This document shows, piece after piece, positions 2,487 to 62,842 of a stretch of DNA of 64,000 nucleotides. Position 1 is the first letter of the stretch, and the number at the start of each line of letters is the position of its first letter. A program made the translations under genes and the position numbers. The DNA is from a virus (Duplodnaviria > Caudoviricetes): IMG/VR virus record IMGVR_UViG_3300024259_001623, one strand, 5' to 3'. The notes under the pieces were generated by a model. The model was given only the letters and a program-made list of their open reading frames with translations. It ran no database searches and had not been told where the DNA came from.

Positions 2487-3611
2487 ATGAAGATAACTCG
2501 TACAATTAAACTTAAACTCAATATACCTGAATCGGAAATACTATCCACTGTTCAAGCATATACAAAAGCATATAACCTTATATGTCAACAAGGTTGGCAA
2601 GATAAAGACTACAATGCTATATCTCTACACCACAAAACATATAAAAATGTTAGAAAACAATTTAATCTTCCTGCTCAACTAGCTATTTCAGCAAGGACAA
2701 AAGCAACTGAAAGCCTTAAATCTGTTAGATCTAGAATTATTAAAAAACAAAAAGCTACTCAACCAAATTCTAAACAATGTTCAATCAGATACGACAAAAA
2801 CTCTATTACTATCTGGTTTGACAAAGAAAAAATTTCTCTTCTTACTGTTAATGGAAGAAAGAAATATTCTATCCGAGTGCCAGATTATTTTAAACAGTAT
2901 ATTACTTGGAATAAATGTTCTGCTGAACTTATGATCAGAAACCATACTGTTTTTCTTAATATTACAGTTTCTACAGAAAAAACTGATATTCCTCAAACAG
3001 ATACTTATGTAGGAATAGATCGTGGTATCAAAAAGATAGCAGTAACATCTGAAAAACAATTTTTTAATGGATCTCAAATTAAAAGAATTACAGATAAATA
3101 TGAAAAAAATAAAAGTAAACTTCAAAGCAAAGGAACTAAATCTGCCAAAAGACACCTTAAAAAACTTTCTAAAAAGGTTAACCGTTTTCGCAGAGATGTA
3201 AATCATTGTATTGCTAAACAAATTGTAAAATCTGTAAAACCAGGAAGTACTATTATTCTCGAAGATTTGGCTGGTATTCGTCAAAATGTCAGATTGAGGA
3301 AGAAACAAAGAACAGAACTAAATAAATGGAACTTTTACCAGTTTGAACAGTTCTTGAAATATAAAGCAGAAGAAAAAGGTATTAAAGTAGAACATGTTTC
3401 TGCCAGATATACTTCTCAAAAATGTAGTAAGTGCGGTTATATTTCTCGTTCTAATCGTAAGAGTCAGTCTCAGTTTAAATGTACAAAATGTTCTTATCAA
3501 TTAAATGCAGATTTAAATGCTGCTTTTAATATTAAGAAAAATTACTTAGACAGTATATCTTATCTAGGTAGGGTTGTAGTCAATCAACCTATTGTAACAT
3601 CGTCAGTATGA
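2487..3611 (+). CDS. tnpB: IS200/IS605-family RNA-guided endonuclease TnpB
   Basis: RuvC-I YVGIDRGIKKIAVTS, RuvC-II IILEDL, Zn ribbon CSKCG...CTKC, RuvC-III ADLNAAFNI. All three acidic catalytic positions are present. Confidence 0.92.
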   Translation: MKITRTIKLKLNIPESEILSTVQAYTKAYNLICQQGWQDKDYNAISLHHKTYKNVRKQFNLPAQLAISARTKATESLKSVRSRIIKKQKATQPNSKQCSIRYDKNSITIWFDKEKISLLTVNGRKKYSIRVPDYFKQYITWNKCSAELMIRNHTVFLNITVSTEKTDIPQTDTYVGIDRGIKKIAVTSEKQFFNGSQIKRITDKYEKNKSKLQSKGTKSAKRHLKKLSKKVNRFRRDVNHCIAKQIVKSVKPGSTIILEDLAGIRQNVRLRKKQRTELNKWNFYQFEQFLKYKAEEKGIKVEHVSARYTSQKCSKCGYISRSNRKSQSQFKCTKCSYQLNADLNAAFNIKKNYLDSISYLGRVVVNQPIVTSSV

Positions 3612-3669
3612 CGATAGTTACAAGTCTCCACTTTTAAGAGGTAATTGACAATATATTATACCGAAGTTA
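3520..3669 (+). ncRNA. Putative TnpB omegaRNA / IS right end plus guide (boundaries approximate)
   Basis: Hairpin TGTAAC-ATCGTCA-gta-TGACGAT-a-GTTACA at the tnpB stop, then ...CAAGTCTCCACTTTTAAGAGGTAATTGAC ending at 3649, resembling IS605-type right ends. The inferred guide is the flank AATATATTATACCGAAG... Confidence 0.6.
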
Positions 3670-3681
3670 TTTTTAACAGGC

Positions 3682-3716
3682 AATAAAAAAGCCACGCAAA
3701 AACGTGACTTTTTATT
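3682..3716. terminator. Bidirectional intrinsic terminator between convergent tnpB and ORF 3735-4112
   Basis: AATAAAAAAGCCACG-caaaaa-CGTGACTTTTTATT inverted repeat with A and T tracts. Confidence 0.7.
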
Positions 3717-3734
3717 AAAATCAAATATTTATTT

Positions 3735-4112
3735 TTAAAATACTGCTTTAACGATATCTGGATACAATTCCATTAATCGCAAGAAATCTTCGATACCTTG
3801 GCCCCATTCTGAAGACGCATAAAACTGATCTTCAACCCCAGTATTAGGAGGAACGAGTTTAACGAAATTACGAGCAATGAATCCTTTTAATTGTTCCATC
3901 CAATTCTCAGATTGCATAATACTTTGTAATTCTGCATCTAATTCAGGAAAATTCCTAGATTCTAATTTTAATAATTCCAAAGCATCTACCAAAGCATTAG
4001 CATTTTCATCTTCTACTTCGGGCTGATTATCTTCTTGGAACTCATAATAATCTCGCTCCATTTGTTGATCACCAAAACTATCATAATATTGTGCGGTTTT
4101 TATTCTTTTCAT
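3735..4112 (-). CDS. Hypothetical acidic protein, probable internal head protein
   Basis: SD GGAGA upstream. Starts MKRIKTAQ, a motif shared with other head-module proteins. Confidence 0.6.
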   Translation of the reverse strand: MKRIKTAQYYDSFGDQQMERDYYEFQEDNQPEVEDENANALVDALELLKLESRNFPELDAELQSIMQSENWMEQLKGFIARNFVKLVPPNTGVEDQFYASSEWGQGIEDFLRLMELYPDIVKAVF

Positions 4113-4124
4113 TTTATCTCCTAT

Positions 4125-5618
4125 TTACATTTTATTGGCTTTTTCAGCTTGCTTAATCCAATCTTCCAAGGATATATTCATTCTTTTCTGCATTTGTTCA
4201 TCTAATTCCTTCCGAATATCTTTTCTCCAACCAAAAGGAAAAATACCAGAATATCTGTATTCTACTTCTTTTTCATATTCTTCCATAGCTTTTTCATATT
4301 CTTCATCATCTTCATAATCTGGCTCATATGGATATACAAGATCTGATTCTAGACTATCTAGATAATCGACATCTAGATAATCGACATCTAATGCTTTATT
4401 AAGCTCAAATAATAACATATCTATCCCTTCATCTTCTTCATCTACAGCCAAACGTACAATAATTTCTCCTAGTCCGCTATCTCCATCATATCCACCTTTA
4501 CTACTCATTTGTTGAACCATATCATAAGCATTTTCATATGCCTGTGCAACAAACTGTATCTTGTTAGTATCAGTCTCTTTCTTCAAACCATATTCATCAA
4601 ATTCCCCTTGGGATAAAAACTTATATGCATTTTCCCACTCTTCTATAACAGTACTTATACTTGTCCATGTCAAATTAGATGATGCAAAGAAATCAGCAGG
4701 ATCTACTTCTTCTTGCGACACAGAAGGAGAATTATCATCACTTGCTATCCAATGTCTAATAATATCTTTATATTCATCTTTAGGCTCAGAATTAGATTTT
4801 CCATATATTTGTTTTATATATTTTCCCGTTTCATCTATTTCTATTGTGACATGAGGATTATTATCAGGATCCCTTAAAGAATATATAACCGATATACCTT
4901 CGGATACAGGACCACAGTAGCCACCAACACAATTGTCCATCTTGTTACCTTCAGCTTCCAAATCATTTTTAGATTGAACATCTTGAATAGTCCAACCATG
5001 CCACTCTTTTATATCTCTGCCCTCGGCATCTTTCCAAAATGGCCCCCAAACGACCTCACGATCTTTAGGATCATATTCTCCTTCACCTTTAAAAGCAGTA
5101 GCATGCCATTCTGCTGACGCATCCAAAGCCCTATCTAAAGTATAACTATTCAAATCAGGCAATTCTTGTCTATACCAGTCCAACATATTACGAATTTCAT
5201 TTCCTCTGGGATGAGCAGCTTCCCGGTTAAACAAAAATAATTTTATTCTTCTTACATCTTCTTGATTATATATTTTTCCTTTTAACCCTAAATATTTATA
5301 AATTTCTAAAGAAAACCATCTTACAAAACGATCTAAAATATTTCCATACCCTATAACTGATGCTGCAAAATTCTTAGCCATATTAGTCAAATCTTTTTCC
5401 CAAGGACTTTTCCCTGTTTCTTCTGATTGATTAGCTATATTCTGTAATTCAACGAGAGTGATTTGAGGATTTTTTCTAGCTTCATTTGTTAATATATTAG
5501 CAATATTATTATTTGACACATCAAATGACATGATAAAATCTACGATATTTTGTGGCAGATTAAGTGTTGATAAAAAATCAATCCTACCAGCAGCTATGCA
5601 TATTTTATACCAGTTCAT
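4125..5618 (-). CDS. PcfJ-like domain protein with MNWYK N-terminus and acidic C-terminus
   Basis: DLEAEGNKMDNCVGGY...IYSLRDPDNNPHVTIEI...IKQIYGKSNSEP resembles the PcfJ family core. Confidence 0.65.
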   Translation of the reverse strand: MNWYKICIAAGRIDFLSTLNLPQNIVDFIMSFDVSNNNIANILTNEARKNPQITLVELQNIANQSEETGKSPWEKDLTNMAKNFAASVIGYGNILDRFVRWFSLEIYKYLGLKGKIYNQEDVRRIKLFLFNREAAHPRGNEIRNMLDWYRQELPDLNSYTLDRALDASAEWHATAFKGEGEYDPKDREVVWGPFWKDAEGRDIKEWHGWTIQDVQSKNDLEAEGNKMDNCVGGYCGPVSEGISVIYSLRDPDNNPHVTIEIDETGKYIKQIYGKSNSEPKDEYKDIIRHWIASDDNSPSVSQEEVDPADFFASSNLTWTSISTVIEEWENAYKFLSQGEFDEYGLKKETDTNKIQFVAQAYENAYDMVQQMSSKGGYDGDSGLGEIIVRLAVDEEDEGIDMLLFELNKALDVDYLDVDYLDSLESDLVYPYEPDYEDDEEYEKAMEEYEKEVEYRYSGIFPFGWRKDIRKELDEQMQKRMNISLEDWIKQAEKANKM

Positions 5619-46661: not shown

Positions 46662-46690
46662 ATTATAGAATAATATTCAACAAAATGCAA
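46662..46690 (-). promoter_or_regulatory. sigma70-type promoter TTGCAT-N17-TATAAT
   Basis: Exact 17-nt spacer, upstream of the macrodomain-HNH-DUF115-AAA genes. Confidence 0.8.
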
Positions 46691-46698
46691 TTATTCTT

Positions 46699-47520
46699 TT
46701 AAAAAACCGGGTTCTTATCATTACATGATGCGATTATAGAAATAATATTTTCTCCGAAATACTCTGGATTTTTATTTATTTTATTTTTCAACCGCTTCAG
46801 AACATCTTTATGAATTTGACTAATCCTTGATTCTGACATATCTACCTTTTTAGATATCTCTCTCATTGTCATATTTTCATAATAGTAATAATAAACAATT
46901 TTTCTTTCTATGTTTTTAAAGTCTCTCCCCATCAATTTGCCTAAGAACTCTTTTCTTATTAATTTTGAATCTGGAGAAGAAATGTTTTTAGATACTAAAT
47001 ATTTATTGAAATCTTTTTTGTTTTCGTTTTCTTTTTCTAAAACAACATTTGAATCGATACTGGAAAAAATAACTGGATTAAACTTTTTATTATTTTTTAT
47101 ATAATCCTCTTCTGAAATATCTAACTCTGATATGACTTCAGAATCTGTTACTGCATCACATTTTTCAGATTCCATCTTCTCTCTCATCTTTTCAATCTTA
47201 GTTTGCCTCATTCTAACACTTCTCGGAACCCAATCATCAGAACGCAAACCATCTATAATAGACCCTCTTATCCGTAATGTTGCATATGTCTCAAATTTTA
47301 TTTTTCTTTCTAATTCAAATCTGTCTATAGCCTTATACAATCCATCAAACCCATGAGATGCCAATTCCTCCTCAGAAACCCTCCTATTAATTTTGTTACA
47401 AACTTTTCTAGCGATCTTCTTTACCAATACATAATAATGCTTTATTAATTGATTTCTTAATTCTCCATCATTACTAAGCTTAAATTCTTCCCAAACCTTC
47501 TGCAATTCTAAATTATTCAT
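46699..47520 (-). CDS. FliA/WhiG (sigma-28)-like sigma factor
   Basis: GFDGLYKAIDRF...KFETYATLRIRGSIIDGLRSDDWVPRSVR, and region 4 MTMREISKKVDMSESRISQIH. Confidence 0.9.
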   Translation of the reverse strand: MNNLELQKVWEEFKLSNDGELRNQLIKHYYVLVKKIARKVCNKINRRVSEEELASHGFDGLYKAIDRFELERKIKFETYATLRIRGSIIDGLRSDDWVPRSVRMRQTKIEKMREKMESEKCDAVTDSEVISELDISEEDYIKNNKKFNPVIFSSIDSNVVLEKENENKKDFNKYLVSKNISSPDSKLIRKEFLGKLMGRDFKNIERKIVYYYYYENMTMREISKKVDMSESRISQIHKDVLKRLKNKINKNPEYFGENIISIIASCNDKNPVF

Positions 47521-47654
47521 AAACTATCCTCAAAAAACTGATATAATACCTTTTATACTCCTAAAATCTTTCACTTTTAAAATAAGAAATTAGAATGCTC
47601 TATTAAGATTATAGAAAATTAAATCGAAATAATCAAATTAAATCTATTTTATAA

Positions 47655-47683
47655 TTGCAAGTTATCCCAATACAGCATATAAT
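47655..47683 (+). promoter_or_regulatory. sigma70-type promoter TTGCAA-N17-TATAAT
   Basis: Exact 17-nt spacer, upstream of ORF 47711. Confidence 0.8.
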
Positions 47684-47710
47684 CTTAAAAGCGAGATTTA
47701 AGGATAAACA

Positions 47711-48250
47711 ATGAATAATACACTTTTAGTTAATACAGACACACAAAAATGCTTTATGTCTAAAAATAGTTTTTTATATAAAAAAGATTCTGAAAAAATA
47801 ATTCCGCATCTGAAACAAATCACTCATATTGCTGCCTCAAATGATATACCTACGATCCACACACTAAATAATGATGTAAAATCACCCTATAATGAGAAAG
47901 ATTTTATAAATGAAACAAATCCATTTGGACATGGAGTAATATCTATAGATGACGGACAAAACAACGATATTCCTTCAATTCTGTCTTCTTTAAATAACAA
48001 TGATTTCTCGAATATTATTATTATAAAAAATAATTATGATATAATCTCTGGGAATCGCAATTCTAAAACTATTTTAGACAATTTCAAAAAATATAAAATT
48101 ATCGTGTATGGCCTTCAAACTGAAGAAATAGCAACATACCTATCTATAAATAATTTTGATGTTTGTATAATTGTTGAAGCAACACATAGTCTAAACATCA
48201 ATAAATGGAAAAACTCTAATATAAAGTTTATTTCTATAAAAAATATTTGA
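47711..48250 (+). CDS. Degenerate isochorismatase/nicotinamidase-fold protein
   Basis: LLVNTDTQKCFM resembles the family N-terminus. IIVYGLQTEEI sits where G-x-x-T-D-x-C normally is, so the catalytic Cys is missing. Confidence 0.55.
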   Translation: MNNTLLVNTDTQKCFMSKNSFLYKKDSEKIIPHLKQITHIAASNDIPTIHTLNNDVKSPYNEKDFINETNPFGHGVISIDDGQNNDIPSILSSLNNNDFSNIIIIKNNYDIISGNRNSKTILDNFKKYKIIVYGLQTEEIATYLSINNFDVCIIVEATHSLNINKWKNSNIKFISIKNI

Positions 48251-48254
48251 TAGA

Positions 48255-48563
48255 CTATCTTTGCCTTCTCTGTCCAGTTATGACTTCCCATTTAGATAAT
48301 CTACGTGGTTTATTGGCCTCTGCAAATAGTTTTGCATACTTATCTTTAGATAAAAACTTTTGCACTATAACTGGATGCTCTTTTAGGTCATCTATCAAAT
48401 CGTTTTCTTTCAAGCTCTTATAAACATTAAAAACTATTTTATCCATGCCAACAGAAGGATCAGATAAGGCATTATTTATTTTAACAATAACGTTCTTAGC
48501 CCATTCATCTGCTTTTTCTTTCAATTTTATTTCTTTTTCTTTATCCATTTGTAATCCTTCCAT
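48255..48563 (-). CDS. Hypothetical protein
   Basis: About 100-aa ORF; the start may be MDKEKE. Confidence 0.55.
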   Translation of the reverse strand: MEGLQMDKEKEIKLKEKADEWAKNVIVKINNALSDPSVGMDKIVFNVYKSLKENDLIDDLKEHPVIVQKFLSKDKYAKLFAEANKPRRLSKWEVITGQRRQR

Positions 48564-51500
48564 ACCAAGAACCTGAGTATTTATCTATATTTCTCATATG
48601 TTCAACTTTATCCATAATACCATTAGCCATACCTGTATCAAATATTTTTTGTTCTTCTTCTAAATCTACCTGTTGCTGAACAGCATCAACAAGCTCTCTT
48701 TCAATCTCTTTCAATCTCTTTTCGTCTTCTGGACTCTGTATACCTATTTCAAAAATCTTTAACTGCTCATCTGTCAATTTAGTTATAATATTAGCTATTT
48801 TAATTTTGTTATCTACTCTTGATTTAAAGTCTTTATCTTCTGTTCCTTCGGCAACAATAGAAGTCACTTTAACTGGTTTCTGGCTATTAATTCTATAGGC
48901 TCTACCTCTCATCTGCTCAACAGATTCAGGCGTCCAGTCAAAATCATTTTCTATAACGTCTTCTACTATATTCGGAAAATCTAAACCAGTTCCTCCAGCC
49001 TGTATCATAAGGACCATAGCCCTTGCTCCACCCTGCCCCTTCATATCTTTGAAGTCTTCTATGATTTTCGCTTTTGTCTTTTTATGCATACCGCCCATTA
49101 TCGCTACGACCTGTCCACCACCCTGTTGTCTATCTAAAATTGACTGCAATCCGACCTGTAATTCAATAGCTGAATCTCTAAACGCCGTAAATACCATAAC
49201 TTTTTTGCCCTGAGAGAGGACTTGTTCGGCCTGTTGCAATGAATGTGGAACTTTGGCTATTGCCAAACAATTTCTTGTTGCTATCATAACTGATACAGTC
49301 AATTCAGGTTTTTTGTAATCCATAACCTTATTGCCAATACATCTATATAAAGATGATGTGTCAATATTGACTTCTACATCTTCTACATTCATATCTGGGA
49401 TGTCGCCCCTGACATCTTTCTTGGTTCTAGCCATATAAACGCCAGTAGCCATTAACCATTCTTTGAGCTTGTTGGCGGCTCTAACCTTATCTTCTACAGT
49501 AGCCTTTGTTCCCCCATACTTCATACCCCCCAGTTCTTTTGCGAAAGTAGCAGGAGTCAATTTACCTAGAGGATGATTTATAACTTTTAATTGATTATAT
49601 AAATCTGTAGGAGTATTAGCTACAACAGTAGCAGATGCTCCCCAAACAAAAGGTATTCCAAAAGTTTCTCCGTTCTCTTCAAAGGAAGATAAACTTTGGA
49701 TATTCGCTGTTCTTTGAGAGCCACCAGTTTTGATTTTATGTATCTCATCTAAAATTAGAACAGATATATTTCCTTGAGAAACTTGAGCCTTCAACTGTCT
49801 GACAGCTTCATCTCTTTGACTTTTAACAGAAAAATTAGTATATGTCAAAACATTCCATTTTGCTGCTCTACCTGCATCAGTAGAAACATCATTAGGTTCC
49901 ACAGTAGCGAACTGAACTATAGAATTTATCCATTGAGTTTGCAACTGGGGGTTCAAAGTGATAATCAAAACATTGCCACCATCTTTCTTTATTCTTAGAT
50001 CAGCAGCAACAATAGTCTGAACGGTTTTACCAACACCAGTGGAATCTCCCAATAAAGCAGATTGTCTGCCGTAAAGAAAAGCTACTCCCTCTTTCTGCTT
50101 ATCATATAACTCGAAATCTATTTCTTCACCGTCTTTAACGATAGTTTTTTTATAATCATCTAGAGCAGCTAAAAACGCCTCATGGTCATTAATCTTTGTA
50201 GTTCTTTTTTCTCCCCTTGCGTCAATGAAAACTTTTTCTTTTTGGAAACCGTCTAAGTCTCCTTCAACCCTAGTAACAGGAACAACATTCGTAGTAACCA
50301 AACCAGCTACAATTTTATTGAAATTAGCAGAATCAAAACCATTCGCTTCGAAGATACCTCTTTTGCCTCCACCGCCAGCTAATTGTTTATATGTATTATA
50401 GTCTCCACGGACTAAATATTCTTTATATCCATCTGGTCTTCTGTCTTTTCTAACTCTATGAAAAAAACTTTCGCCAGTATAGGGAGTATTTGGATCTTCC
50501 ATATTAGATGGATCATAAGGAGCAGAAACGTCAGGGACTACGGCTACAACTCTATCTCCATCTCCTTCCCCTGTGCTGTGTCTAGGGAACATAAATTTAA
50601 TAATGTCTTTAAGATTTACTGATGCTTTAGGTTCGGCTTTTTTATTATAAAAACTGAAAGCCATATGCCAAGAGCCATTAGTCTCTTTCGTAATATCTCT
50701 TACTTTTAATTGAACTAAGGCATTCTCTTTCTGAGGTTCTTTTTTTTCTGGAGGCAATCCAAGGTGTGTTTCTGCGGAATCAAACAATATCTTATCCATA
50801 AGATCCCAGATAGGAGAAGTATCAAAATCACCCTGCAAAGTCTGTATCATTCGTTTTATCACAGATGGATCAGGATCAATAAAAATTCTTGCGTGGTCTT
50901 TTTTATCATTGTTATAAAGGACTTTGTGAATACCTTCTGATTGGAGAGTTTTTATAAATTCATTCCAACTATCGGACCATACCCCTAAAGCAATAAGCAA
51001 TCTTCCCTTATCATACTCAACTCTGGCTATTTTTTGCTTTTCTGCCGGACCTTGCTTAGTAGGCTGTTTCAATAAATCTTCGATATCAGAAACATCATAT
51101 CCCATTTCTTTTAACATAGGAGCAACTACATTAAGATATTTTAACGATGCTTGATAAACATCTACTCCATCTTTGGAGGAATAAGAAAACATTTGCCAAG
51201 CCTTTCCTTGATCCCCTTTTGAAGCCATATCATCTTGTACAGCATTTTGTATCTTTTTCTGTCCACGACCTAAAGCCTTAATATACAATAAAAGCTTTCC
51301 CCATTGGTTCTTACCTAAAAATAATACCTTCTTGTCGTCTGTGACTTGAACACCTGGATTCAACTTCGCATTGATCAATTCAGAAATGCCTTGATAAACA
51401 GCATCATAATTCTGTAATTGAGTATTTTTGTATTTAGCCAAAATTCTCAGTACGTTAGAAGCAAGAGATATTGGTATCTCTGTCATATTAGATTCTGGAT

Positions 51501-51675
51501 AAGACAAAATACTATGAATATGAGCGCTATTATAATCGGTTTTATTAAAACCTAAAGAATCAAACTGAACAGGAGCGCCCCTCCCCATCATATCATTAAC
51601 AGCACCAATAAGTTGAGCTACAGCATCCCCTTTGATAGTTTGCTCTGACATTTTATGCAACAAAAGATTTTCCAT
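48541..51675 (-). CDS. SNF2/SWI2-family (HARP-like) helicase with a long N-terminal extension
   Basis: KQKEGV...DSTGVGKT, ILDEIH, ASAT, AGGTGLDF, QMRGRAYRI. Confidence 0.9.
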   Translation of the reverse strand: MENLLLHKMSEQTIKGDAVAQLIGAVNDMMGRGAPVQFDSLGFNKTDYNSAHIHSILSYPESNMTEIPISLASNVLRILAKYKNTQLQNYDAVYQGISELINAKLNPGVQVTDDKKVLFLGKNQWGKLLLYIKALGRGQKKIQNAVQDDMASKGDQGKAWQMFSYSSKDGVDVYQASLKYLNVVAPMLKEMGYDVSDIEDLLKQPTKQGPAEKQKIARVEYDKGRLLIALGVWSDSWNEFIKTLQSEGIHKVLYNNDKKDHARIFIDPDPSVIKRMIQTLQGDFDTSPIWDLMDKILFDSAETHLGLPPEKKEPQKENALVQLKVRDITKETNGSWHMAFSFYNKKAEPKASVNLKDIIKFMFPRHSTGEGDGDRVVAVVPDVSAPYDPSNMEDPNTPYTGESFFHRVRKDRRPDGYKEYLVRGDYNTYKQLAGGGGKRGIFEANGFDSANFNKIVAGLVTTNVVPVTRVEGDLDGFQKEKVFIDARGEKRTTKINDHEAFLAALDDYKKTIVKDGEEIDFELYDKQKEGVAFLYGRQSALLGDSTGVGKTVQTIVAADLRIKKDGGNVLIITLNPQLQTQWINSIVQFATVEPNDVSTDAGRAAKWNVLTYTNFSVKSQRDEAVRQLKAQVSQGNISVLILDEIHKIKTGGSQRTANIQSLSSFEENGETFGIPFVWGASATVVANTPTDLYNQLKVINHPLGKLTPATFAKELGGMKYGGTKATVEDKVRAANKLKEWLMATGVYMARTKKDVRGDIPDMNVEDVEVNIDTSSLYRCIGNKVMDYKKPELTVSVMIATRNCLAIAKVPHSLQQAEQVLSQGKKVMVFTAFRDSAIELQVGLQSILDRQQGGGQVVAIMGGMHKKTKAKIIEDFKDMKGQGGARAMVLMIQAGGTGLDFPNIVEDVIENDFDWTPESVEQMRGRAYRINSQKPVKVTSIVAEGTEDKDFKSRVDNKIKIANIITKLTDEQLKIFEIGIQSPEDEKRLKEIERELVDAVQQQVDLEEEQKIFDTGMANGIMDKVEHMRNIDKYSGSWYGRITNG

Positions 51676-51735
51676 GCTTATTTCTCCGTTTTAATAATAT
51701 TTTATTAGCGAAAAAATATCTTAAAACCTTTATTT

Positions 51736-52401
51736 TTAATAAGGTCTTTTAACAGGAGCTATAGCGAATGTAGAATCGTGTTTTAACGAGAATTCCTTCA
51801 AAGGAGCTTGATAATAATAATCACATGCTTTTCTGATATCTGGTCTATCATAATCATGATAAATAAGTAGTCCGTCATCCTTGATAAGTCTTTGAGAATT
51901 AAAAGTGTCTGTTAAGACTCCATAATCAGTATGTTCCCCATCTACGAAAATAACATCACAACTTTCTTTGCCCAATTCAGTTTCTAACTTATAAAGCTGT
52001 CTTTGAGATAAACCCTTCTTATATATGACGTTATCTTTATTAATTAGCATTTTTTCTGTGATATATCTAAATCTAACATCTTTAAGAGGACTATCATATG
52101 CAATCGTATAAAGCTTTGCATCTGGCTTAGCACAATGCATTACATACATACTAAGACCAAAATTGGTTCCTATTTCTATTATAATTTCAGCTTTTTCTTT
52201 AGCCCTGACTTGTTCAAATAAAAACTTATATGGTAAAAATTCTTGTTCTTCTAATGGACGAAGATCTCCATGCAAACAGGTCCAAAACAAAAAATTATGT
52301 CTTTTGTTTTTTCTCTTTCTGTAAACTTTAGGAGATTGATCTTTATAGCCACAATCTCTAGCCATTTTAATGATATTCAGTCTACACTCTTCCCATTCCA
52401 T
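51736..52401 (-). CDS. Class I SAM-dependent methyltransferase (Methyltransf_24-like)
   Basis: IIEIGTNFGLS, DVIFVDGEH, LLIYHDY. Confidence 0.8.
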   Translation of the reverse strand: MEWEECRLNIIKMARDCGYKDQSPKVYRKRKNKRHNFLFWTCLHGDLRPLEEQEFLPYKFLFEQVRAKEKAEIIIEIGTNFGLSMYVMHCAKPDAKLYTIAYDSPLKDVRFRYITEKMLINKDNVIYKKGLSQRQLYKLETELGKESCDVIFVDGEHTDYGVLTDTFNSQRLIKDDGLLIYHDYDRPDIRKACDYYYQAPLKEFSLKHDSTFAIAPVKRPY

Positions 52402-52421
52402 AGTGTTATATCTCCATTAAC

Positions 52422-52622
52422 TTATTTAATTACGCCTGCAATAGAAACTTGATATGTTATATTCTTTGGAGGCCATTCTAATTCTATTCCTATACTCGAC
52501 ATAGTAGAAGTAATGTCAACACCCATAGCCTCTGGGCATTTAGACACATATAAACACTTATGATTTTTTTTAAATTCTCCTATAATATTATCTAATTGTT
52601 TTCTAGCTCTAGGTTGCCAATA
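52422..52622 (-). pseudogene. Startless 66-codon C-terminal fragment of an unrelated (DUF2284-like) protein, in frame behind the coaB fragment
   Basis: YWQPRARKQL...CPEAMGVDITSTM...LEWPP...TYQVSIAGVIK* directly follows the TGA at 52623-52625 in the same frame. Confidence 0.45.
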
Positions 52623-53015
52623 TCAACCTTCATAAACATAATAATCGCTTACTGCTGCTGCTAAAACCGTAGCATCAAAAGACTGATTCTCCATAAGATC
52701 ATCCATAATTCTAGCATAATCAGCATAAGTCTTATATGTAATTTCTTTTATTCTTAATTTATTTCTTTTATAAAATCTATGTAGATTATAAAATGCAAAA
52801 GCATTTTTGAAGAAACCTTCCTTAACATCATATTTGACTATAAAAGGACTGCAACTTCCCTCTGCTCTCAAAAACGTAAGTTCTATATTATCATCTACTT
52901 TAAGAAACTCAGTTGCTATTCTAGAACCGAATGTACCTCTACTCATATTAGTTATACTTCTAACGTCATCAATAGGAACTTTTGTTCCTCCGCTTGTTAC
53001 GAGAACTTTAAACAT
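52623..53015 (-). pseudogene. coaB: C-terminally truncated phosphopantothenate-cysteine ligase (CoaB-like)
   Basis: VLVTSGGT..PID.VRSITNMSRGTFG...LAAAVSDY, then a stop. The C-terminal third of the family is missing. Confidence 0.7.
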
Positions 53016-53081: not shown

Positions 53082-53663
53082 TTATTTTATGATTTCTGGA
53101 CTATTTTTTCTTATTCTTTCAGAAAGATAATTATCCAGCAGCAGATAAATCAGTTTCCACTTCGCAAGTATATTCCATTCAAAGCCATTTGACGATATGC
53201 AAGCAATCCAAGATTTCTTTTTTCCATAGTCTTTCCAATAAGACAGGTCTTTTTTCAAATCTTGTGTTGTCTTGCCATCCCAGAAATCATGAAATGTTTC
53301 TTTAACGATTTTTGTTTTGTAATCACATTTGAGTTCGATTTTCCAGTCGCATTCTTCTCTTCTTCTTATATCCATCAAATAACTTTGTTCTTGGTGTTCC
53401 ACGGAATATTTGACGATATCAAATGCTTCATAAAAAGAGAGATGGAATTTCTTGGAAAGTTTTTTGATTACTTTCTGGCTATCAAATCCTCTTTCAACCA
53501 TATTGCGGGCTGCTCTATAAGGCAAAAAACAATCTTTGCCCGAAGGATAATCGTCCCAGCTTGTTGGGGGGATAGACCTCTTTCTTGCACCGTTGATCAC
53601 GGCGTTTTTGTGTCCTTTAGGACAACGATAGGTGTAACCTATCTTACGATACGTTCTGCTCAT
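53082..53663 (-). CDS. Hypothetical protein
   Basis: 193 aa with SD AAGGAG. Confidence 0.6.
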   Translation of the reverse strand: MSRTYRKIGYTYRCPKGHKNAVINGARKRSIPPTSWDDYPSGKDCFLPYRAARNMVERGFDSQKVIKKLSKKFHLSFYEAFDIVKYSVEHQEQSYLMDIRRREECDWKIELKCDYKTKIVKETFHDFWDGKTTQDLKKDLSYWKDYGKKKSWIACISSNGFEWNILAKWKLIYLLLDNYLSERIRKNSPEIIK

Positions 53664-53744
53664 TATAATCTCCTTTAAGTAAGTAACTTAAAGAAGACCA
53701 CTCATGTAGATTCCCATTTTCAGCATATTAATTCCTTTATATAA

Positions 53745-53827
53745 CGGAAGGAGAGGGAGTCGAACCCTCAAGGCCGTAGCTCGTCCGATTTCAAGTCGGG
53801 TGCAATCTCCAATTTGCTTGCCCTTCC
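53745..53827 (-). tRNA. tRNA-Ser(UGA)
   Basis: Loop CT-TGA-AA, long variable arm, GGTTCGACTCC T-arm, G discriminator, no CCA. Confidence 0.92.
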
Positions 53828-53847
53828 TTTTTAAAACAATTAGTTCG

Positions 53848-54033
53848 TTACATCCACCGCACTGGAACGGCTCTACCGCGAAGCACATGCCATGACGCCT
53901 TGATTCGCCATCTCAACCACCCAGCATTCCCTGGCTTAACGTTTTCCGGCTTTGCTAGATGCCAGACCCCATTATCTTTATCATGAGATATTGGTTGGTC
54001 AGATAATTCATTCATAGTATAAATAGTTCTCAT
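53848..54033 (-). CDS. 61-aa Trp-rich ORF embedded in the tRNA operon
   Basis: SD AGAGGAG, ATG at 54033: MRTIYTMNELSDQPISHDKDNGVWHLAKPENVKPGNAGWLRWRIKASWHVLRGRAVPVRWM. Confidence 0.75.
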   Translation of the reverse strand: MRTIYTMNELSDQPISHDKDNGVWHLAKPENVKPGNAGWLRWRIKASWHVLRGRAVPVRWM

Positions 54034-54056
54034 AATCTCTCCTCTACATTTCTTAT

Positions 54057-54145
54057 CGGATAGGACAGGGATCGAACCTGCATTACTCAAAAAGTAAACA
54101 GCCTTTCGAAGACTGCACGACCTACCAGTAGTCGTCACGCTATCC
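54057..54145 (-). tRNA. tRNA-Ser(CGA)
   Basis: Stem CAGTC/GGCTG, loop TT-CGA-AA, long variable arm, no CCA. Confidence 0.9.
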
Positions 54146-54150
54146 AAAAA

Positions 54151-54239
54151 CGGAAACGACAGGATTCGAACCTGTGGGACCGTTTGCACGGCCCGGCTGC
54201 TTTCCAAGCAACTGCGATCAACCACTCTGCCACGTTTCC
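54151..54239 (-). tRNA. tRNA-Ser(GGA)
   Basis: Stem GTTGC/GCAGC, loop TT-GGA-AA, long variable arm, no CCA. Confidence 0.92.
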
Positions 54240-54245
54240 AAATAA

Positions 54246-54320
54246 AGACGAAGGTGGGATTCGAACCCACGCATAGTAGTTTTGCAGACTACCGTGTTAG
54301 CCAGACTTCACCACTTCGTC
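54246..54320 (-). tRNA. tRNA-Cys(GCA)
   Basis: Loop CT-GCA-AA, U discriminator, no CCA. Confidence 0.92.
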
Positions 54321-54326
54321 ATTTAA

Positions 54327-54410
54327 TACCGGGAACGAGAGTCGAACTCGTACGCCCTTAATGGGCAATGGGTTTTAAACCCATCGTGTCTGCCATTCCA
54401 CCATCCCAGC
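54327..54410 (-). tRNA. tRNA-Leu(UAA)
   Basis: Stem ATGGG/CCCAT, loop TT-TAA-AA, A discriminator, no CCA. Confidence 0.92.
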
Positions 54411-54418
54411 TTATATAA

Positions 54419-54501
54419 TACCTCTAACAGGAGTCGAACCTGTAAGCCCTTTCGAGCAGCGGCTTTTGAAACCACCGTGTTTGCCGTTTCACCATAGAGG
54501 C
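54419..54501 (-). tRNA. tRNA-Leu(CAA)
   Basis: Stem GTGGT/GCCGC, loop TT-CAA-AA, A discriminator, no CCA. Confidence 0.9.
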
Positions 54502-54507
54502 ATTTAA

Positions 54508-54591
54508 CGCCTCTCTACAGGAATCGAACCTGCCTATTCTTACCATGACAGCCTTAGATGCCGTCACAGCAAAAATATTCCCCATAGAGGC
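54508..54591 (-). ncRNA. Non-canonical tRNA-like RNA with a CUA (amber) anticodon-type loop
   Basis: Same 5' 10 nt as tRNA-Leu(CAA), intact T-arm GCAGG-TTCGATT-CCTGT, 7-10 bp stem closing loop AT-CTA-AG, degenerate D-arm, one extra nt in the 3' acceptor strand. Confidence 0.7.
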
Positions 54592-54603
54592 ATATTTTTA
54601 TCT

Positions 54604-54679
54604 AAGGAAAGAAAATAATTTTGAAACAGAATTGGTTATTTATCTTTCCTTGTAATATTTTACAAAGACAAAGATAAAC
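54604..54679 (-). promoter_or_regulatory. Attenuator-like alternative hairpins (1:2 versus 2:3)
   Basis: Segment 2 (54636-54655) pairs with segment 1 (54660-54679; about 18 bp, 2-nt bulge) or with segment 3 (54604-54618; 15 bp, 1-nt bulge). Confidence 0.75.
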
Positions 54680-54734
54680 ACGATAACAAGCAGGATGAAA
54701 CGATTGAAAAACTAGTTGTGTTGAAGTTAGTCAT
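54660..54734 (-). CDS. 24-aa leader peptide MTNFNTTSFSIVSSCLLSCLSLSL
   Basis: SD AAGGA 7 nt before ATG. Codons 13-24 are TCA TCC TGC TTG TTA TCG TGT TTA TCT TTG TCT TTG. Confidence 0.8.
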   Translation of the reverse strand: MTNFNTTSFSIVSSCLLSCLSLSL

Positions 54735-54759
54735 TTTGCATTCCTTTATTATCTATACT

Positions 54760-54788
54760 ATTATAGGCAACGATTCTGAAAAACGCAA
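54760..54788 (-). promoter_or_regulatory. sigma70-type promoter TTGCGT-N17-TATAAT for the tRNA operon
   Basis: Exact 17-nt spacer, about 26 nt upstream of the leader ATG. Confidence 0.85.
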
Positions 54789-54806
54789 CAGGAAAATAAT
54801 ATTTTC

Positions 54807-54842
54807 AAAAAAAGAGTCAGCCTCTATAAAAAGACTGACTCT
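54807..54842 (-). terminator. Intrinsic terminator insulating the tRNA operon from upstream transcription
   Basis: AGAGTCAG...CTGACTCT stem followed by a T tract on the minus strand. Confidence 0.85.
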
Positions 54843-54909
54843 CGCCATTCGTCATGGCTTTTAGGAGGTGCCGCTTAACATAACTATATTATCGGAACAA
54901 CTCTTAAAA

Positions 54910-55215
54910 TTATTCCAATATATTTTTTATATTCTCATCTATTTCCTTGCTCTCTTTAGTTTGCTCACAAATATCCCCAAATTCATCTTCCTCATTCAAG
55001 CTTGGATTAACAAAAATCATCAGATCATCATGAAATTTATTATTTTTAGTCCAAAAAGACTTCTTTAACATAACCAGTCTAACGCACTGCATACTCTCAT
55101 GGTCCTCAGCCTCGTCTGCTGCCCTCAGAAGCTCACTAGATAGCTCCCTGGCCTCAGCGACCGTCAAAGTCTTCCTGTCGTTAGAATCGCCTTTTCTCTC
55201 TCTTATTATAACCAT
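54910..55215 (-). CDS. Hypothetical protein
   Basis: 101-aa ORF. Confidence 0.6.
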   Translation of the reverse strand: MVIIRERKGDSNDRKTLTVAEARELSSELLRAADEAEDHESMQCVRLVMLKKSFWTKNNKFHDDLMIFVNPSLNEEDEFGDICEQTKESKEIDENIKNILE

Positions 55216-55847: not shown

Positions 55848-56579
55848 TTATACATCTTCTGTGACTTCCTCTTCATCATTATATAATTTACACTTTACTG
55901 ATTTTCCAACAGACCTCATTGTAGCGTACTTAGCCAATCCTTCTGTTTGTTTAGCAAACGCACCTTGAGTGTCAGCAAGCCCTTTATATGCAATAGTATT
56001 ACTTGCAGGGATATTCAACTGACTAGCGATCTTTTGAACATCATGATTAACGCCTATATAAGAAAAAGTCCACTGATCTGTATCATCCTGCAATTCAGCA
56101 ATAATTTTAGCGACACTACTCTTGTCATATTCTTTAGAAGAATTATCATAACCGTCTGTAAAGATAGTCACAACAACCTTAACTTCTTCGTTATCTGACA
56201 TTTCTTTTTTCAATTCTTCTTTGATCTTCATAACATTATGACCAACAGCGTCACACATAGCAGTCATTCCGCCTGGAGCATATCCGTCTACATTGATTTC
56301 TTCTAACTTGTCGATTTTCTCTTTCCATAAAGCAACTTCAATTTTATCATTAAAATAAATCAAAGAAATAAGGAAATCTTGATCTTCAAATTCTCCATTT
56401 AATCTTTTGATTGTCTGTACGTTCTCATTAAACCCATCTACTGCAACTCCCCTAACAGCATGCATCGATCCACTCTTATCTAAAATCATCATATAATGAG
56501 TGACCTTTTTGTTCTTCTTACTAATCTTCTTTTTCTTTGGAGGGTTATCCCCAAGATCCAAAAACTTATTCTCTTTCAT
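55848..56579 (-). CDS. vWA domain protein
   Basis: MIDAS motif ILDKSGSM, GMTAMCDA, IFTDGYDN. Confidence 0.9.
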   Translation of the reverse strand: MKENKFLDLGDNPPKKKKISKKNKKVTHYMMILDKSGSMHAVRGVAVDGFNENVQTIKRLNGEFEDQDFLISLIYFNDKIEVALWKEKIDKLEEINVDGYAPGGMTAMCDAVGHNVMKIKEELKKEMSDNEEVKVVVTIFTDGYDNSSKEYDKSSVAKIIAELQDDTDQWTFSYIGVNHDVQKIASQLNIPASNTIAYKGLADTQGAFAKQTEGLAKYATMRSVGKSVKCKLYNDEEEVTEDV

Positions 56580-56606
56580 TTAAAAATCTCCTTATAAACA
56601 ACATTA

Positions 56607-56615
56607 ATTATAACA
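56607..56615 (-). promoter_or_regulatory. Extended -10 element (TGT-TATAAT) before the second vWA gene
   Basis: Lies in the kinase-vWA intergenic gap, upstream of SD AAGGAG. Confidence 0.5.
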
Positions 56616-56628
56616 TAAAAATTTCCAC

Positions 56629-58302
56629 TTATTTTTTCAACTTCAATCTATAAACTATATTATTTTCTAAAATCAACGCAGAACTACCATCTCTATACAA
56701 AACAGAATTATGCAATGTCCCAGACTTAATAACCTTTTTGTCATCATATCCTATTCGATTACAGAAAAGTTCTAGATCGCCTTCGCTGTCTATCCTTACG
56801 CAAACTCCAGTATCCAAAGAAACAAAATTGATACTCGATAGCATAACATCTTCTCTCACAGATATATCATATTCTCCGTGATTATTTATTTTGATAATAA
56901 ACTCATAATATTTGGACTGCTTCTCTGCGAATATAATTGCAACTCCATTATCATATTTAGCATCAATAACTCTATAAGATGACAACTCAGGTATCTTCAA
57001 CTGCGTATGAACTTCATTTTCAAATACTGATATATAATGAGAACCTAACAGATTCTGTGTTACTATACCATCAAAAATCTTAGTAGCATTATCTAAAACA
57101 TTACATACAAGCTTCATAGACGCACAGATATTTTTACCAACTTCTAAAAACTCTATTCTATAAAGTCCATCTTTATTCTTAGAATACAAAAATCCATTAT
57201 ACGACATAATAGATTCTGAACTGAGATTACAGACAATATCTTTAGAGTCTGTGATATTATAAGCCTTTATAATATCTTTTTCTACTCTAGCCGCAATAAT
57301 TTTATTCTTCTTTTTGCTCAAGCATACGTTTGTTCCCTTAAATTCATGATTCTTATTATTGACGAAGATTCCATCATCTGATGTAGAAACCAAATCTCCA
57401 GATAGAAAATCGATTGAGTATATTTTTGAATTATACTCTTGAATTTTCTCAGTCAAAATATTGACTGCATGATTGTCAACAATTATAATATCAGGAGTGC
57501 AAATCTTAACAGCAACTCCATCAGGAGGAGGCAATCTTTTTCCAAGTTCAAAAACACTATTATACCAGTCGTAGTATTGAGATGGAATCTTATCTAATGG
57601 CAAACAGATTTTAGGAATTGATACATCTCCATTTAAAACAGAGACATTCTTCATCATCCTTTCATCTAAATGTTTATTGCCTTTATACGCAGGGTGCCTT
57701 CCCTTATACGGATGAATACCTACCATCATCTCAAAACTAACTATGGCAAAAGAAAACCAATCTGTCTCTTCACTGAAACCACTTGAATGCCTATCTCTTA
57801 TGCTCTCCATAATAGCAGTAGCAGAAAAGCTTTTTGTCTTATAGCTGTCTACGTCTATAAAAAGAATCTTTTTGAAATTCTTGTCGATCAAAAAATTCAT
57901 TTCATTTAAATCAACTATAAGGATATCATTATCATGTATATGATATATTTTTGCCTTCATATCTTCTATCAGGTCAATAACATTATTAACCAAGATATTA
58001 TTTTTATCTTTGAAAGATTTGGTAAAAATTTTGCATAGAGGAAAAGCATTATCTATATGCCTCATACTATATCCAATAGGAATATTTTTAGAATCTAATA
58101 CTACACTCTTGGGACGTATGATATCTTCATTTTTTATGACGGATAGTTCTTTTATCTTTATAGGATCTATAACATTCTTTTTAGAATTATATATTTTATA
58201 AGCCAAGCCATCCTTAGCGTACACTTGGCCCTCTCCACCCGCATCGATAAAGTCTTTTTTGCTTAAAGATATCTTTTTGCCATTATCAACAAAAATATTC
58301 AT
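56629..58302 (-). CDS. Ser/Thr protein kinase, YegI/TerY-P type
   Basis: AGGEGQVY, AYKIY, IVDLNEMNFLI, FIDVDSY, ETDWFSFAI...GIHPYKG, plus a C-terminal beta-rich region. Confidence 0.85.
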   Translation of the reverse strand: MNIFVDNGKKISLSKKDFIDAGGEGQVYAKDGLAYKIYNSKKNVIDPIKIKELSVIKNEDIIRPKSVVLDSKNIPIGYSMRHIDNAFPLCKIFTKSFKDKNNILVNNVIDLIEDMKAKIYHIHDNDILIVDLNEMNFLIDKNFKKILFIDVDSYKTKSFSATAIMESIRDRHSSGFSEETDWFSFAIVSFEMMVGIHPYKGRHPAYKGNKHLDERMMKNVSVLNGDVSIPKICLPLDKIPSQYYDWYNSVFELGKRLPPPDGVAVKICTPDIIIVDNHAVNILTEKIQEYNSKIYSIDFLSGDLVSTSDDGIFVNNKNHEFKGTNVCLSKKKNKIIAARVEKDIIKAYNITDSKDIVCNLSSESIMSYNGFLYSKNKDGLYRIEFLEVGKNICASMKLVCNVLDNATKIFDGIVTQNLLGSHYISVFENEVHTQLKIPELSSYRVIDAKYDNGVAIIFAEKQSKYYEFIIKINNHGEYDISVREDVMLSSINFVSLDTGVCVRIDSEGDLELFCNRIGYDDKKVIKSGTLHNSVLYRDGSSALILENNIVYRLKLKK

Positions 58303-58313
58303 TTTATCATCCT

Positions 58314-59111
58314 TTACAGCGTCATCGCCGCAACAGATATATCATCATAGTGTTTTGTGTTTCCATCTTCTTTCAATGTCTTTTCAAATCTCTTTAGCCT
58401 TCTCTTTACGAATTCTCCTTTCAAATTCTTAAAAGGCAGAAAACTTTTGTAAATGTTAATAGTATCCAAAAATGTATTCTTAGAAGTATAAAAAGAACCC
58501 ATTCCGTCAGAAGCCATACCGGCGACTTTTAATTCTGACTTGTCTATAAAAAATGTTTTTACATCTTTATAAGAACCAGGAGCTTCAAAGTCTGAAGATA
58601 ACAATTCAACACCATCTCCTTTTATGATCCATTTATCTATTTTTCTACCTTTATCTATTTCATTGAATCTTTCTCTATTTCCGCTACTAAGTCGATAAGA
58701 TAAATATTTTGGAGCATTGCTCGGAAAAGATATATCATAAACTATAATGTCTTTGTTTTTCTTAACCAGGAATATAGACCCATCTCCTATAATATGAAAA
58801 GATATACTACTAGGATACTCAATTGCCATAAGCAACGTGCATAGAGCAGCATCTTCACTAAGCCCTACCATCTTCAAAGCTTTAATGGATTCATACAACA
58901 CTAAATTCAGACGATCATCCAAAGAGAAATTCATATTTCTAAATATATTTATATTATTATGAACAGCATGGCATAACATACGACTTCCTATATCTGTATT
59001 TACAGAAGAAGAACATCCATCAGACAATACCAGACAATTACCATTAGCTAATGCATAATCTTCACAAACTTGATGATCGTCACCGATCATAAAAATTGAA
59101 TCGAATCCCAT
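58314..59111 (-). CDS. PP2C-like phosphatase (PphC/YegK type)
   Basis: HQVCEDYA, LSDGCSS, CTLL, ASDG, HYDDISVA. Confidence 0.85.
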   Translation of the reverse strand: MGFDSIFMIGDDHQVCEDYALANGNCLVLSDGCSSSVNTDIGSRMLCHAVHNNINIFRNMNFSLDDRLNLVLYESIKALKMVGLSEDAALCTLLMAIEYPSSISFHIIGDGSIFLVKKNKDIIVYDISFPSNAPKYLSYRLSSGNRERFNEIDKGRKIDKWIIKGDGVELLSSDFEAPGSYKDVKTFFIDKSELKVAGMASDGMGSFYTSKNTFLDTINIYKSFLPFKNLKGEFVKRRLKRFEKTLKEDGNTKHYDDISVAAMTL

Positions 59112-61482: not shown

Positions 61483-61511
61483 ATTATAATGGTCACATCA
61501 GAAATATGCAA
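61483..61511 (-). promoter_or_regulatory. sigma70-type promoter TTGCAT-N17-TATAAT driving the pncA-vWA module
   Basis: Exact 17-nt spacer, then SD AAGGAG. Confidence 0.8.
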
Positions 61512-62530: not shown

Positions 62531-62692
62531 CTATCTTTGTTTTTTCTTGTCCTTACATTGCGGACCTTTGGTTTGCCGTACACCATTAAGCACCCATGTG
62601 CCGCACCGATATTGGATGCTCGTGAATTTCTTTGTAGTATGCAGCCAAAGGAATTTGGCTCTACAGTACGGACAATCATATGTTGGCAACAT
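62531..62692 (-). CDS. 53-aa Cys-containing ORF (possible Zn finger)
   Basis: SD AGGGAG. MLPTYDCPYCRAKFLWLHTTKKFTSIQYRCGTWVLNGVRQTKGPQCKDKKKQR. Confidence 0.65.
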   Translation of the reverse strand: MLPTYDCPYCRAKFLWLHTTKKFTSIQYRCGTWVLNGVRQTKGPQCKDKKKQR

Positions 62693-62813: not shown

Positions 62814-62842
62814 ATTATACACAATATATTTATTAAACGCAA
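62814..62842 (-). promoter_or_regulatory. sigma70-type promoter TTGCGT-N17-TATAAT
   Basis: Same -35 and -10 hexamers as the promoter of the tRNA operon. Confidence 0.8.

Follow-up and report, generated by a model that had tools for sequence, protein, structure and literature searches.

Leader-peptide sensing is textbook knowledge for amino-acid operons, and the ribosome-mediated attenuators include ilvL (Leu/Val/Ile), thrL (Thr/Ile), trpL, hisL, pheL, leuL and pheM of the pheST operon. In these enterobacterial systems a short ORF of 14-32 codons is located behind the promoter and carries regulatory codons near its 3' end that repeat one amino acid. Mutually exclusive hairpins are found at the end of the ORF, a canonical 3:4 terminator is present, and the genes controlled encode enzymes or a synthetase. 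In the Rho-dependent control exerted by the tnaC leader of the tna operon, which has 24 codons and is G-poor near its stop codon, ribosomes are stalled by a ligand-bound nascent peptide and the output is independent of an intrinsic terminator. T-box riboswitches respond to the state of a particular tRNA and regulate genes related to translation, but they do so by direct tRNA binding, independently of translation. On the side of tRNA genes, the trn operon of Anabaena PCC 7120 is an inducible tRNA array that is switched on by translational stress (PMC8421152). The terms 'leader', 'attenuat', 'small ORF' and 'terminator' do not occur in the text of that paper. Full-text literature searches for leader-peptide control of a tRNA operon, in a phage or a cell, returned no publication, which agrees with the statement of an earlier reading of this DNA made from its letters alone (the sequence-only reading) that it knew of no described multi-codon leader controlling a phage tRNA operon.

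We here analyze a 64-kb stretch of DNA (the window) from a metagenomic giant phage whose longest contig is 434,625 bp. Its minus strand carries a six-tRNA operon headed by a codon-matched leader ORF. Similar to the enterobacterial attenuators, the leader is a short ORF behind a promoter, has its candidate regulatory codons near the 3' end, ends in predicted mutually exclusive hairpins and falls in the same length range. In contrast, it heads tRNA genes instead of enzyme or synthetase genes, it has one codon for each isoacceptor rather than repeats of a single amino acid, and no canonical terminator is found behind it. With tnaC it has in common the length of 24 codons, the scarcity of G near the stop codon and an output that would not depend on an intrinsic terminator, but it would stall ribosomes through tRNA supply and not through the nascent peptide. 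Sensing the state of specific tRNAs to control translation-related genes would resemble T-boxes, yet the present leader is an ORF and an Rfam search of 53400..55000 returned tRNA models only and no T-box or other family. The Anabaena array likewise comprises supernumerary tRNA genes that move horizontally and are expressed as needed under impaired translation, but is cellular and not of phage origin.

The tRNA operon possesses its own promoter, directly behind which lie the Shine-Dalgarno sequence (SD) and start codon of the leader. All features described for the operon are located on the minus strand. An intrinsic terminator with a 14-pair stem and T run, identified by a terminator scan (54843..54812), closes the preceding 101-aa ORF (55215..54910). 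The promoter (54788..54760) is an exact match to TTGCGT-N17-TATAAT, with TTGCGT at 54788..54783 and TATAAT at 54765..54760. The sequence then reads AAGGAA (54746..54741) as the SD and, 6 nt downstream, an ATG at 54734 that opens the 24-codon leader ORF MTNFNTTSFSIVSSCLLSCLSLSL (54734..54660), closed by a TAA stop codon (54662..54660). An A/U-rich spacer of 67 nt separates this ORF from a tRNA-like RNA. The terminator, the promoter, the SD and the 24-codon ORF named by the sequence-only reading are each present on this strand. The promoter is not listed by the consensus promoter scan because its -35 hexamer fits TTGACA at only 3 of 6 positions. Allowing at most one mismatch, TTGCGT-N17-TATAAT occurs at 5 sites in the window versus 0.5 expected, a count reached in 0 of 100 shuffles. 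These sites (3655-3683, 46662-46690, 54760-54788, 61483-61511 and 62814-62842; pattern TTGC[GA/C]T-N17-TATAAT) are all found on the minus strand, and since all 5 sites of the class TTGC[GA]T-N17-TATAAT lie on the coding strand and exceed expectation, we take them to represent a real promoter class of this phage. Judged from its sequence, the leader ORF is likely translated. By eye, the encoded peptide is without lipobox or membrane-helix character.

A twin of the promoter (62842..62814) heads a second tRNA site in the window (62842-62346, minus strand) consisting of a GC-rich leader, a 53-aa ORF and tRNA-Leu(UAG). The 53-aa ORF (62692..62531) was considered as a second leader and rejected; it encodes a Cys-rich, zinc-ribbon-like small protein, and CTN is used in 3 of its 4 Leu codons (p ~0.07).

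The six tRNAs of the operon all read U-starting codons and five of them are long-arm (class II) tRNAs. ARAGORN and Rfam both identify tRNA-Leu(CAA) (54502..54418), tRNA-Leu(UAA) (54410..54327), tRNA-Cys(GCA) (54320..54246) and tRNA-Ser(GGA) (54240..54150); tRNA-Ser(CGA) (54146..54056) and tRNA-Ser(UGA) (53827..53745) are called by ARAGORN. Between the last two lies a 61-aa ORF (54033..53848, phrog_21988) whose 67%-identical homologues are found in unrelated contexts without tRNAs, indicating that it is probably a small mobile gene. The operon seems to continue into protein genes and no terminator is called. Ahead of the tRNAs lies the 88-nt tRNA-like RNA (54592..54505, fold energy -37 kcal/mol), a paralogue of the neighbouring Leu(CAA) gene; an alignment shows that the two share the 5' end and the T arm. 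Its fold shows an acceptor stem, a T arm and an 18-bp stem with the loop AUCUAAG, placing CUA in the anticodon position; a D arm is missing from the fold, and 54592..54505 is called as a tRNA by neither ARAGORN nor Rfam (RF00005). TAG recoding in the phage was considered and rejected, as TAG closes 9 of 54 long ORFs and TAG read-through yields no convincing gain in long ORFs.

The second half of the leader ORF consists exclusively of codons read by the six downstream tRNAs. Under standard wobble rules the six anticodons read TCN, TGY and TTR, a set of 8 codons. All of the last 12 leader codons (54698..54663) fall within this set and all 8 members are represented, bearing out what the sequence-only reading had claimed for this stretch. 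The 12-codon run is the longest set-only run across all six frames of the 64 kb; the runs next in length (9 and 7 codons) are found opposite acidic tracts, on the non-coding strand, and the longest run in each of 200 first-order Markov simulations of the window is 4-8 codons. In 40 long ORFs of the phage the 8-codon set makes up 11.3% of codons. TCC, TCG and TGC each account for only about 3% of the set in phage genes and all three are present in the leader, the probability that 12 draws from the set cover all 8 codons being 0.0056. Synonymous choice shows the same bias. In phage genes, 32% of Ser codons are AGY and 28% of Leu codons are CTN; given the peptide SSCLLSCLSLSL, avoidance of AGY and CTN has p = 0.027, and avoidance jointly with coverage of all 8 codons has p ~ 3e-4. 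The claimed absence of AGY and CTN codons holds for the 12-codon stretch, and one AGT Ser codon is found outside it, at codon 8.

Within this run, codons 13-18 (54698..54681; TCA TCC TGC TTG TTA TCG) are the Watson-Crick partners of the anticodons UGA, GGA, GCA, CAA, UAA and CGA, one exact cognate for each downstream tRNA. This six-codon window is unique among approximately 128,000 on both strands of the 64 kb, of which 2 contain five cognates and 28 contain four. The one-cognate-per-tRNA pattern was noticed post hoc, yet counting exact cognates in this way follows naturally from the idea of one codon per tRNA. The leader codons have almost certainly been selected to match the downstream tRNAs, and the choice among synonymous codons points to tRNA isoacceptors, not amino acids, as what the leader would sense.

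The end of the leader ORF is predicted to form one of two mutually exclusive hairpins. Segment 2 (54655..54637) can pair either with segment 1, giving hairpin 1:2 (54680..54637, -15.7 kcal/mol), or with segment 3 (54620..54604), giving hairpin 2:3 (54651..54604, -10.5 kcal/mol), which is predicted when segment 1 is covered by a ribosome. Hairpin 1:2 is a predicted near-perfect duplex of about 19 bp whose 5' arm is made up of the last six codons and the stop codon. When a ribosome footprint is masked on codons 18-24, the predicted fold moves from 1:2 to 2:3. The hairpin arms represent low-complexity purine and pyrimidine tracts; in 1000 dinucleotide-preserving shuffles of the spacer, 11 reach the energy of 1:2, 25 reach that of 2:3 and 3 reach both. 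The terminator scan finds no canonical terminator (GC-rich stem and U tract) between the leader and the tRNAs. A weak A/U-rich hairpin with mostly A-U pairs and a U5 end (54600..54570, -8.5 kcal/mol) reaches into the 5' end of the tRNA-like RNA; the scan does not call it. Constraint folds of four transcript lengths with five ribosome positions reveal no terminator that depends on the 1:2/2:3 switch, and as the U5 hairpin forms in every modelled ribosome state the models give no gated stop. Leader and spacer are G-poor, their C>G skew ranking among the top 1.2% of the strand, although C amounts to just 15-20% and A and U dominate the spacer. We found no defined rut or boxA-like site at the leader, whose base composition leaves a Rho site possible. 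The proposal that the leader is an attenuator is supported with regard to the codon-matched ORF with its promoter, SD and start codon and to the predicted exclusive hairpins, and is not supported with regard to a canonical or gated terminator. Because this output element is missing, we do not file the leader among the classical attenuators, despite its looking built like one.

The best explanation, which we consider an even proposition, is that the leader is a translated ORF that tests decoding by each tRNA species of its own operon and regulates the operon through ribosome speed. A ribosome would first traverse a 12-codon spacer and then meet six codons, one exact cognate for each tRNA, followed by six further codons of the same set and the stop codon, which together make up the 5' arm of hairpin 1:2. 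If all codons were read quickly, the ribosome would terminate and 1:2 would form. If any codon were read slowly, the ribosome would sit on segment 1 and segment 2 would pair with segment 3. The switch would set the share of transcripts that continue into, or survive as, the tRNA-like RNA and the six tRNAs, and the outcome would be negative feedback on the supply of these tRNAs. The sequence shows the anatomy of the locus, the codon match and the predicted alternative hairpins. We infer the probable translation of the ORF, the operation of the switch in vivo, its output, which may be non-canonical or Rho-dependent termination or a change in processing or stability, and its direction. More tentatively, with the odds somewhat against it, the leader may be a closed-loop codon sampler, in which slow decoding at any of the six codons would flip the leader RNA and raise those tRNAs, so that ones that are scarce, unmodified or lost to host anticodon nucleases would be replaced only when needed.

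The lack of a gated terminator could also mean a translated ORF with a selected codon match that does not gate transcription of the tRNAs at all; the leader could then serve as a processing site at 1:2, for RNase III for instance, or as the source of a small peptide or a ribosome-loading site for whose decoding the co-transcribed tRNAs are simply needed. The near-perfect long duplex of 1:2, which takes in the stop codon, and the apparent continuation of the operon into protein genes without a terminator are consistent with such a role. However, one exact codon per tRNA brings no obvious benefit unless the read-out is tRNA-dependent, a peptide this short and polar is no candidate for a membrane helix, and the alternative hairpin 2:3 is left without explanation. 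We regard an ungated leader as unlikely.

Defence systems that cleave tRNAs are well documented, as are phage tRNAs that make up for the loss (PMC10264068, PMC11464382, PMC12330615), and the sequence-only reading had proposed that replacement tRNAs are switched on when host Ser/Leu/Cys tRNAs are cleaved, uncharged or under-modified (without i6A37). A tRNA set confined to U-starting codons, with five class II members, would suit such an inducible counter-defence, as would sampling by isoacceptor, which fits the sensing of tRNA species. Nevertheless, no nuclease with a Ser/Leu/Cys target set was identified, and codon compensation accounts equally well for the tRNA set, TTA, TTG and TCT being the commonest Leu and Ser codons of the phage. 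Counter-defence as the specific purpose of the leader is a speculative and quite improbable reading.

The nearest relatives found share the gene neighbourhood of the tRNA operon but not the leader. In INPHARED and IMG/VR the flanking genes retrieved neither DNA nor protein relatives, a 193-aa neighbour protein retrieved only itself from a set of 5.8 billion proteins, and the leader 26-mer does not occur in the viral and genome collections searched. Other contigs of the phage are 99.97-100% identical and leave no covariation to read. Syntenic loci, designated here by L numbers, were reached via the SNF2 helicase, at 45-57% identity, and via the vWA gene, at 43-48%. L014 and L019 contain the PP2C-kinase-vWA block, and the helicase is located downstream in L012-L015, L019 and L020. 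The vWA/PP2C/kinase-like/vWA module upstream of the tRNA site is conserved (55848-59111 on the minus strand of the window; L014:4102-8617; L019:737-4969). Helicase homologues P0008, P0009, P0011 and P0012 (L014:10001-14554 and others) carry an intein with a LAGLIDADG domain (PF14890, PF14528); the helicase of the window (48541-51675) is without intein. At the syntenic place, a tRNA of 72-75 nt with the anticodon CUA is found in L012-L015, L019, L020, L023 and L025; in L020 it is accompanied by Ser(GGA) and Ser(CGA). L038 carries five Ser tRNAs. No codon-matched leader is present at the syntenic tRNA place in L020, L038, L012, L014, L019, L023 or L025, and the relatives' syntenic loci, at 43-57% protein identity, lack both the promoter-leader unit and the six-tRNA set. 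Adjoining the five Ser tRNAs of L038 is a 3'-half Ser tRNA fragment (L038:7945-7995) comprising variable arm, T arm and acceptor end, which by eye nearly repeats L038:8750-8797.

The CUA tRNAs of the relatives are class I (loci L012:7778-8544; L014:8627-9083; L020:2402-2858; L019:4978-5049; L023:1288-1442; L025:3939-4010), with two copies in L023. The tRNA-like RNA of the window occupies the place where these relatives have a true amber-suppressor tRNA and could be a non-orthologous replacement or a decayed copy. Behind the CUA tRNA of L012, L014 and L020 lies a PTH2-like gene (Pfam PF01981, E 2e-7 to 2.5e-4) whose third codon is an in-frame TAG, and by eye a second TAG of the L012 gene aligns with Gln in L020. 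Outside this gene TAG is a normal stop codon in the relatives' contigs. It looks as though the suppressor tRNA of the relatives gates one peptidyl-tRNA-hydrolase-like gene. The 64-kb window contains no PTH2-like homologue.

Leaders enriched in the codons of the tRNA block behind them are also present in phage phiCbK (JX100813). This genome has three tRNA blocks, each preceded by a small ORF that runs into a rho-independent terminator annotated in the record. In unit B, 52% of leader codons can be read by the block's own tRNAs versus at most 2% by other blocks, and in unit C the own-block share is 32% versus at most 10%. The leader of unit A matches poorly, with 16% for its own block and 16% for the others. 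The codon-matched leader design is real in at least two of the three phiCbK units. The present leader resembles these mini-ORFs in its enrichment for the codons of the tRNAs that follow but is stricter in its match, with 12/12 codons and one codon per anticodon, and differs in that no terminator is seen where the phiCbK units have an annotated one. In the same phiCbK region (47000-53000, L022), T-arm motifs absent from the record's annotation occur in several tRNA-like stretches located between annotated tRNAs, for example at L022 positions 2950-3140, 3600-3760 and 5217-5510, and ARAGORN adds calls for Ala(UGC) and Ile(AAU).

That the relatives lack the leader would be in line with a non-coding structured RNA with an incidental ORF, in which the T-rich tract is no more than the pyrimidine strand that pairs with purine-rich stretches in the SD region and segment 2. 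In the minimum-energy fold, codons 14-18 are indeed paired with the SD region and codons 19-24 with segment 2. Such an RNA would not account for the strict period-3 placement of T at the first position of 12 consecutive codons, nor for 12 in-set codons, which have a probability of about 8e-8 at the tract's own base composition. The six-codon permutation is moreover unique in the window and a good SD and ATG stand in frame, which makes a purely structural tract very unlikely. Pure chance, even for a pattern that a reader of many windows picked out after the fact, is scarcely credible given a per-position probability of about 4e-12 for the 12-codon run, extra factors of 0.0056 for coverage and about 1e-4 for the permutation, and the position of the run, which immediately precedes the tRNAs on their own strand and is in frame with the SD and ATG.

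As a compact, testable part of 130 nt, the leader also lends itself to synthetic tRNA-supply sensors. It touches on a 50-year-old question, whether phage tRNAs serve codon compensation or counter tRNA-targeting defence (PMC10264068). If the leader does test decoding by each tRNA of its operon, leader-peptide sensing would extend to tRNA genes, an application not found in the literature. Phage tRNA sets would then be regulated by measured decoding capacity, and the ribosome could act as a per-isoacceptor tRNA meter.
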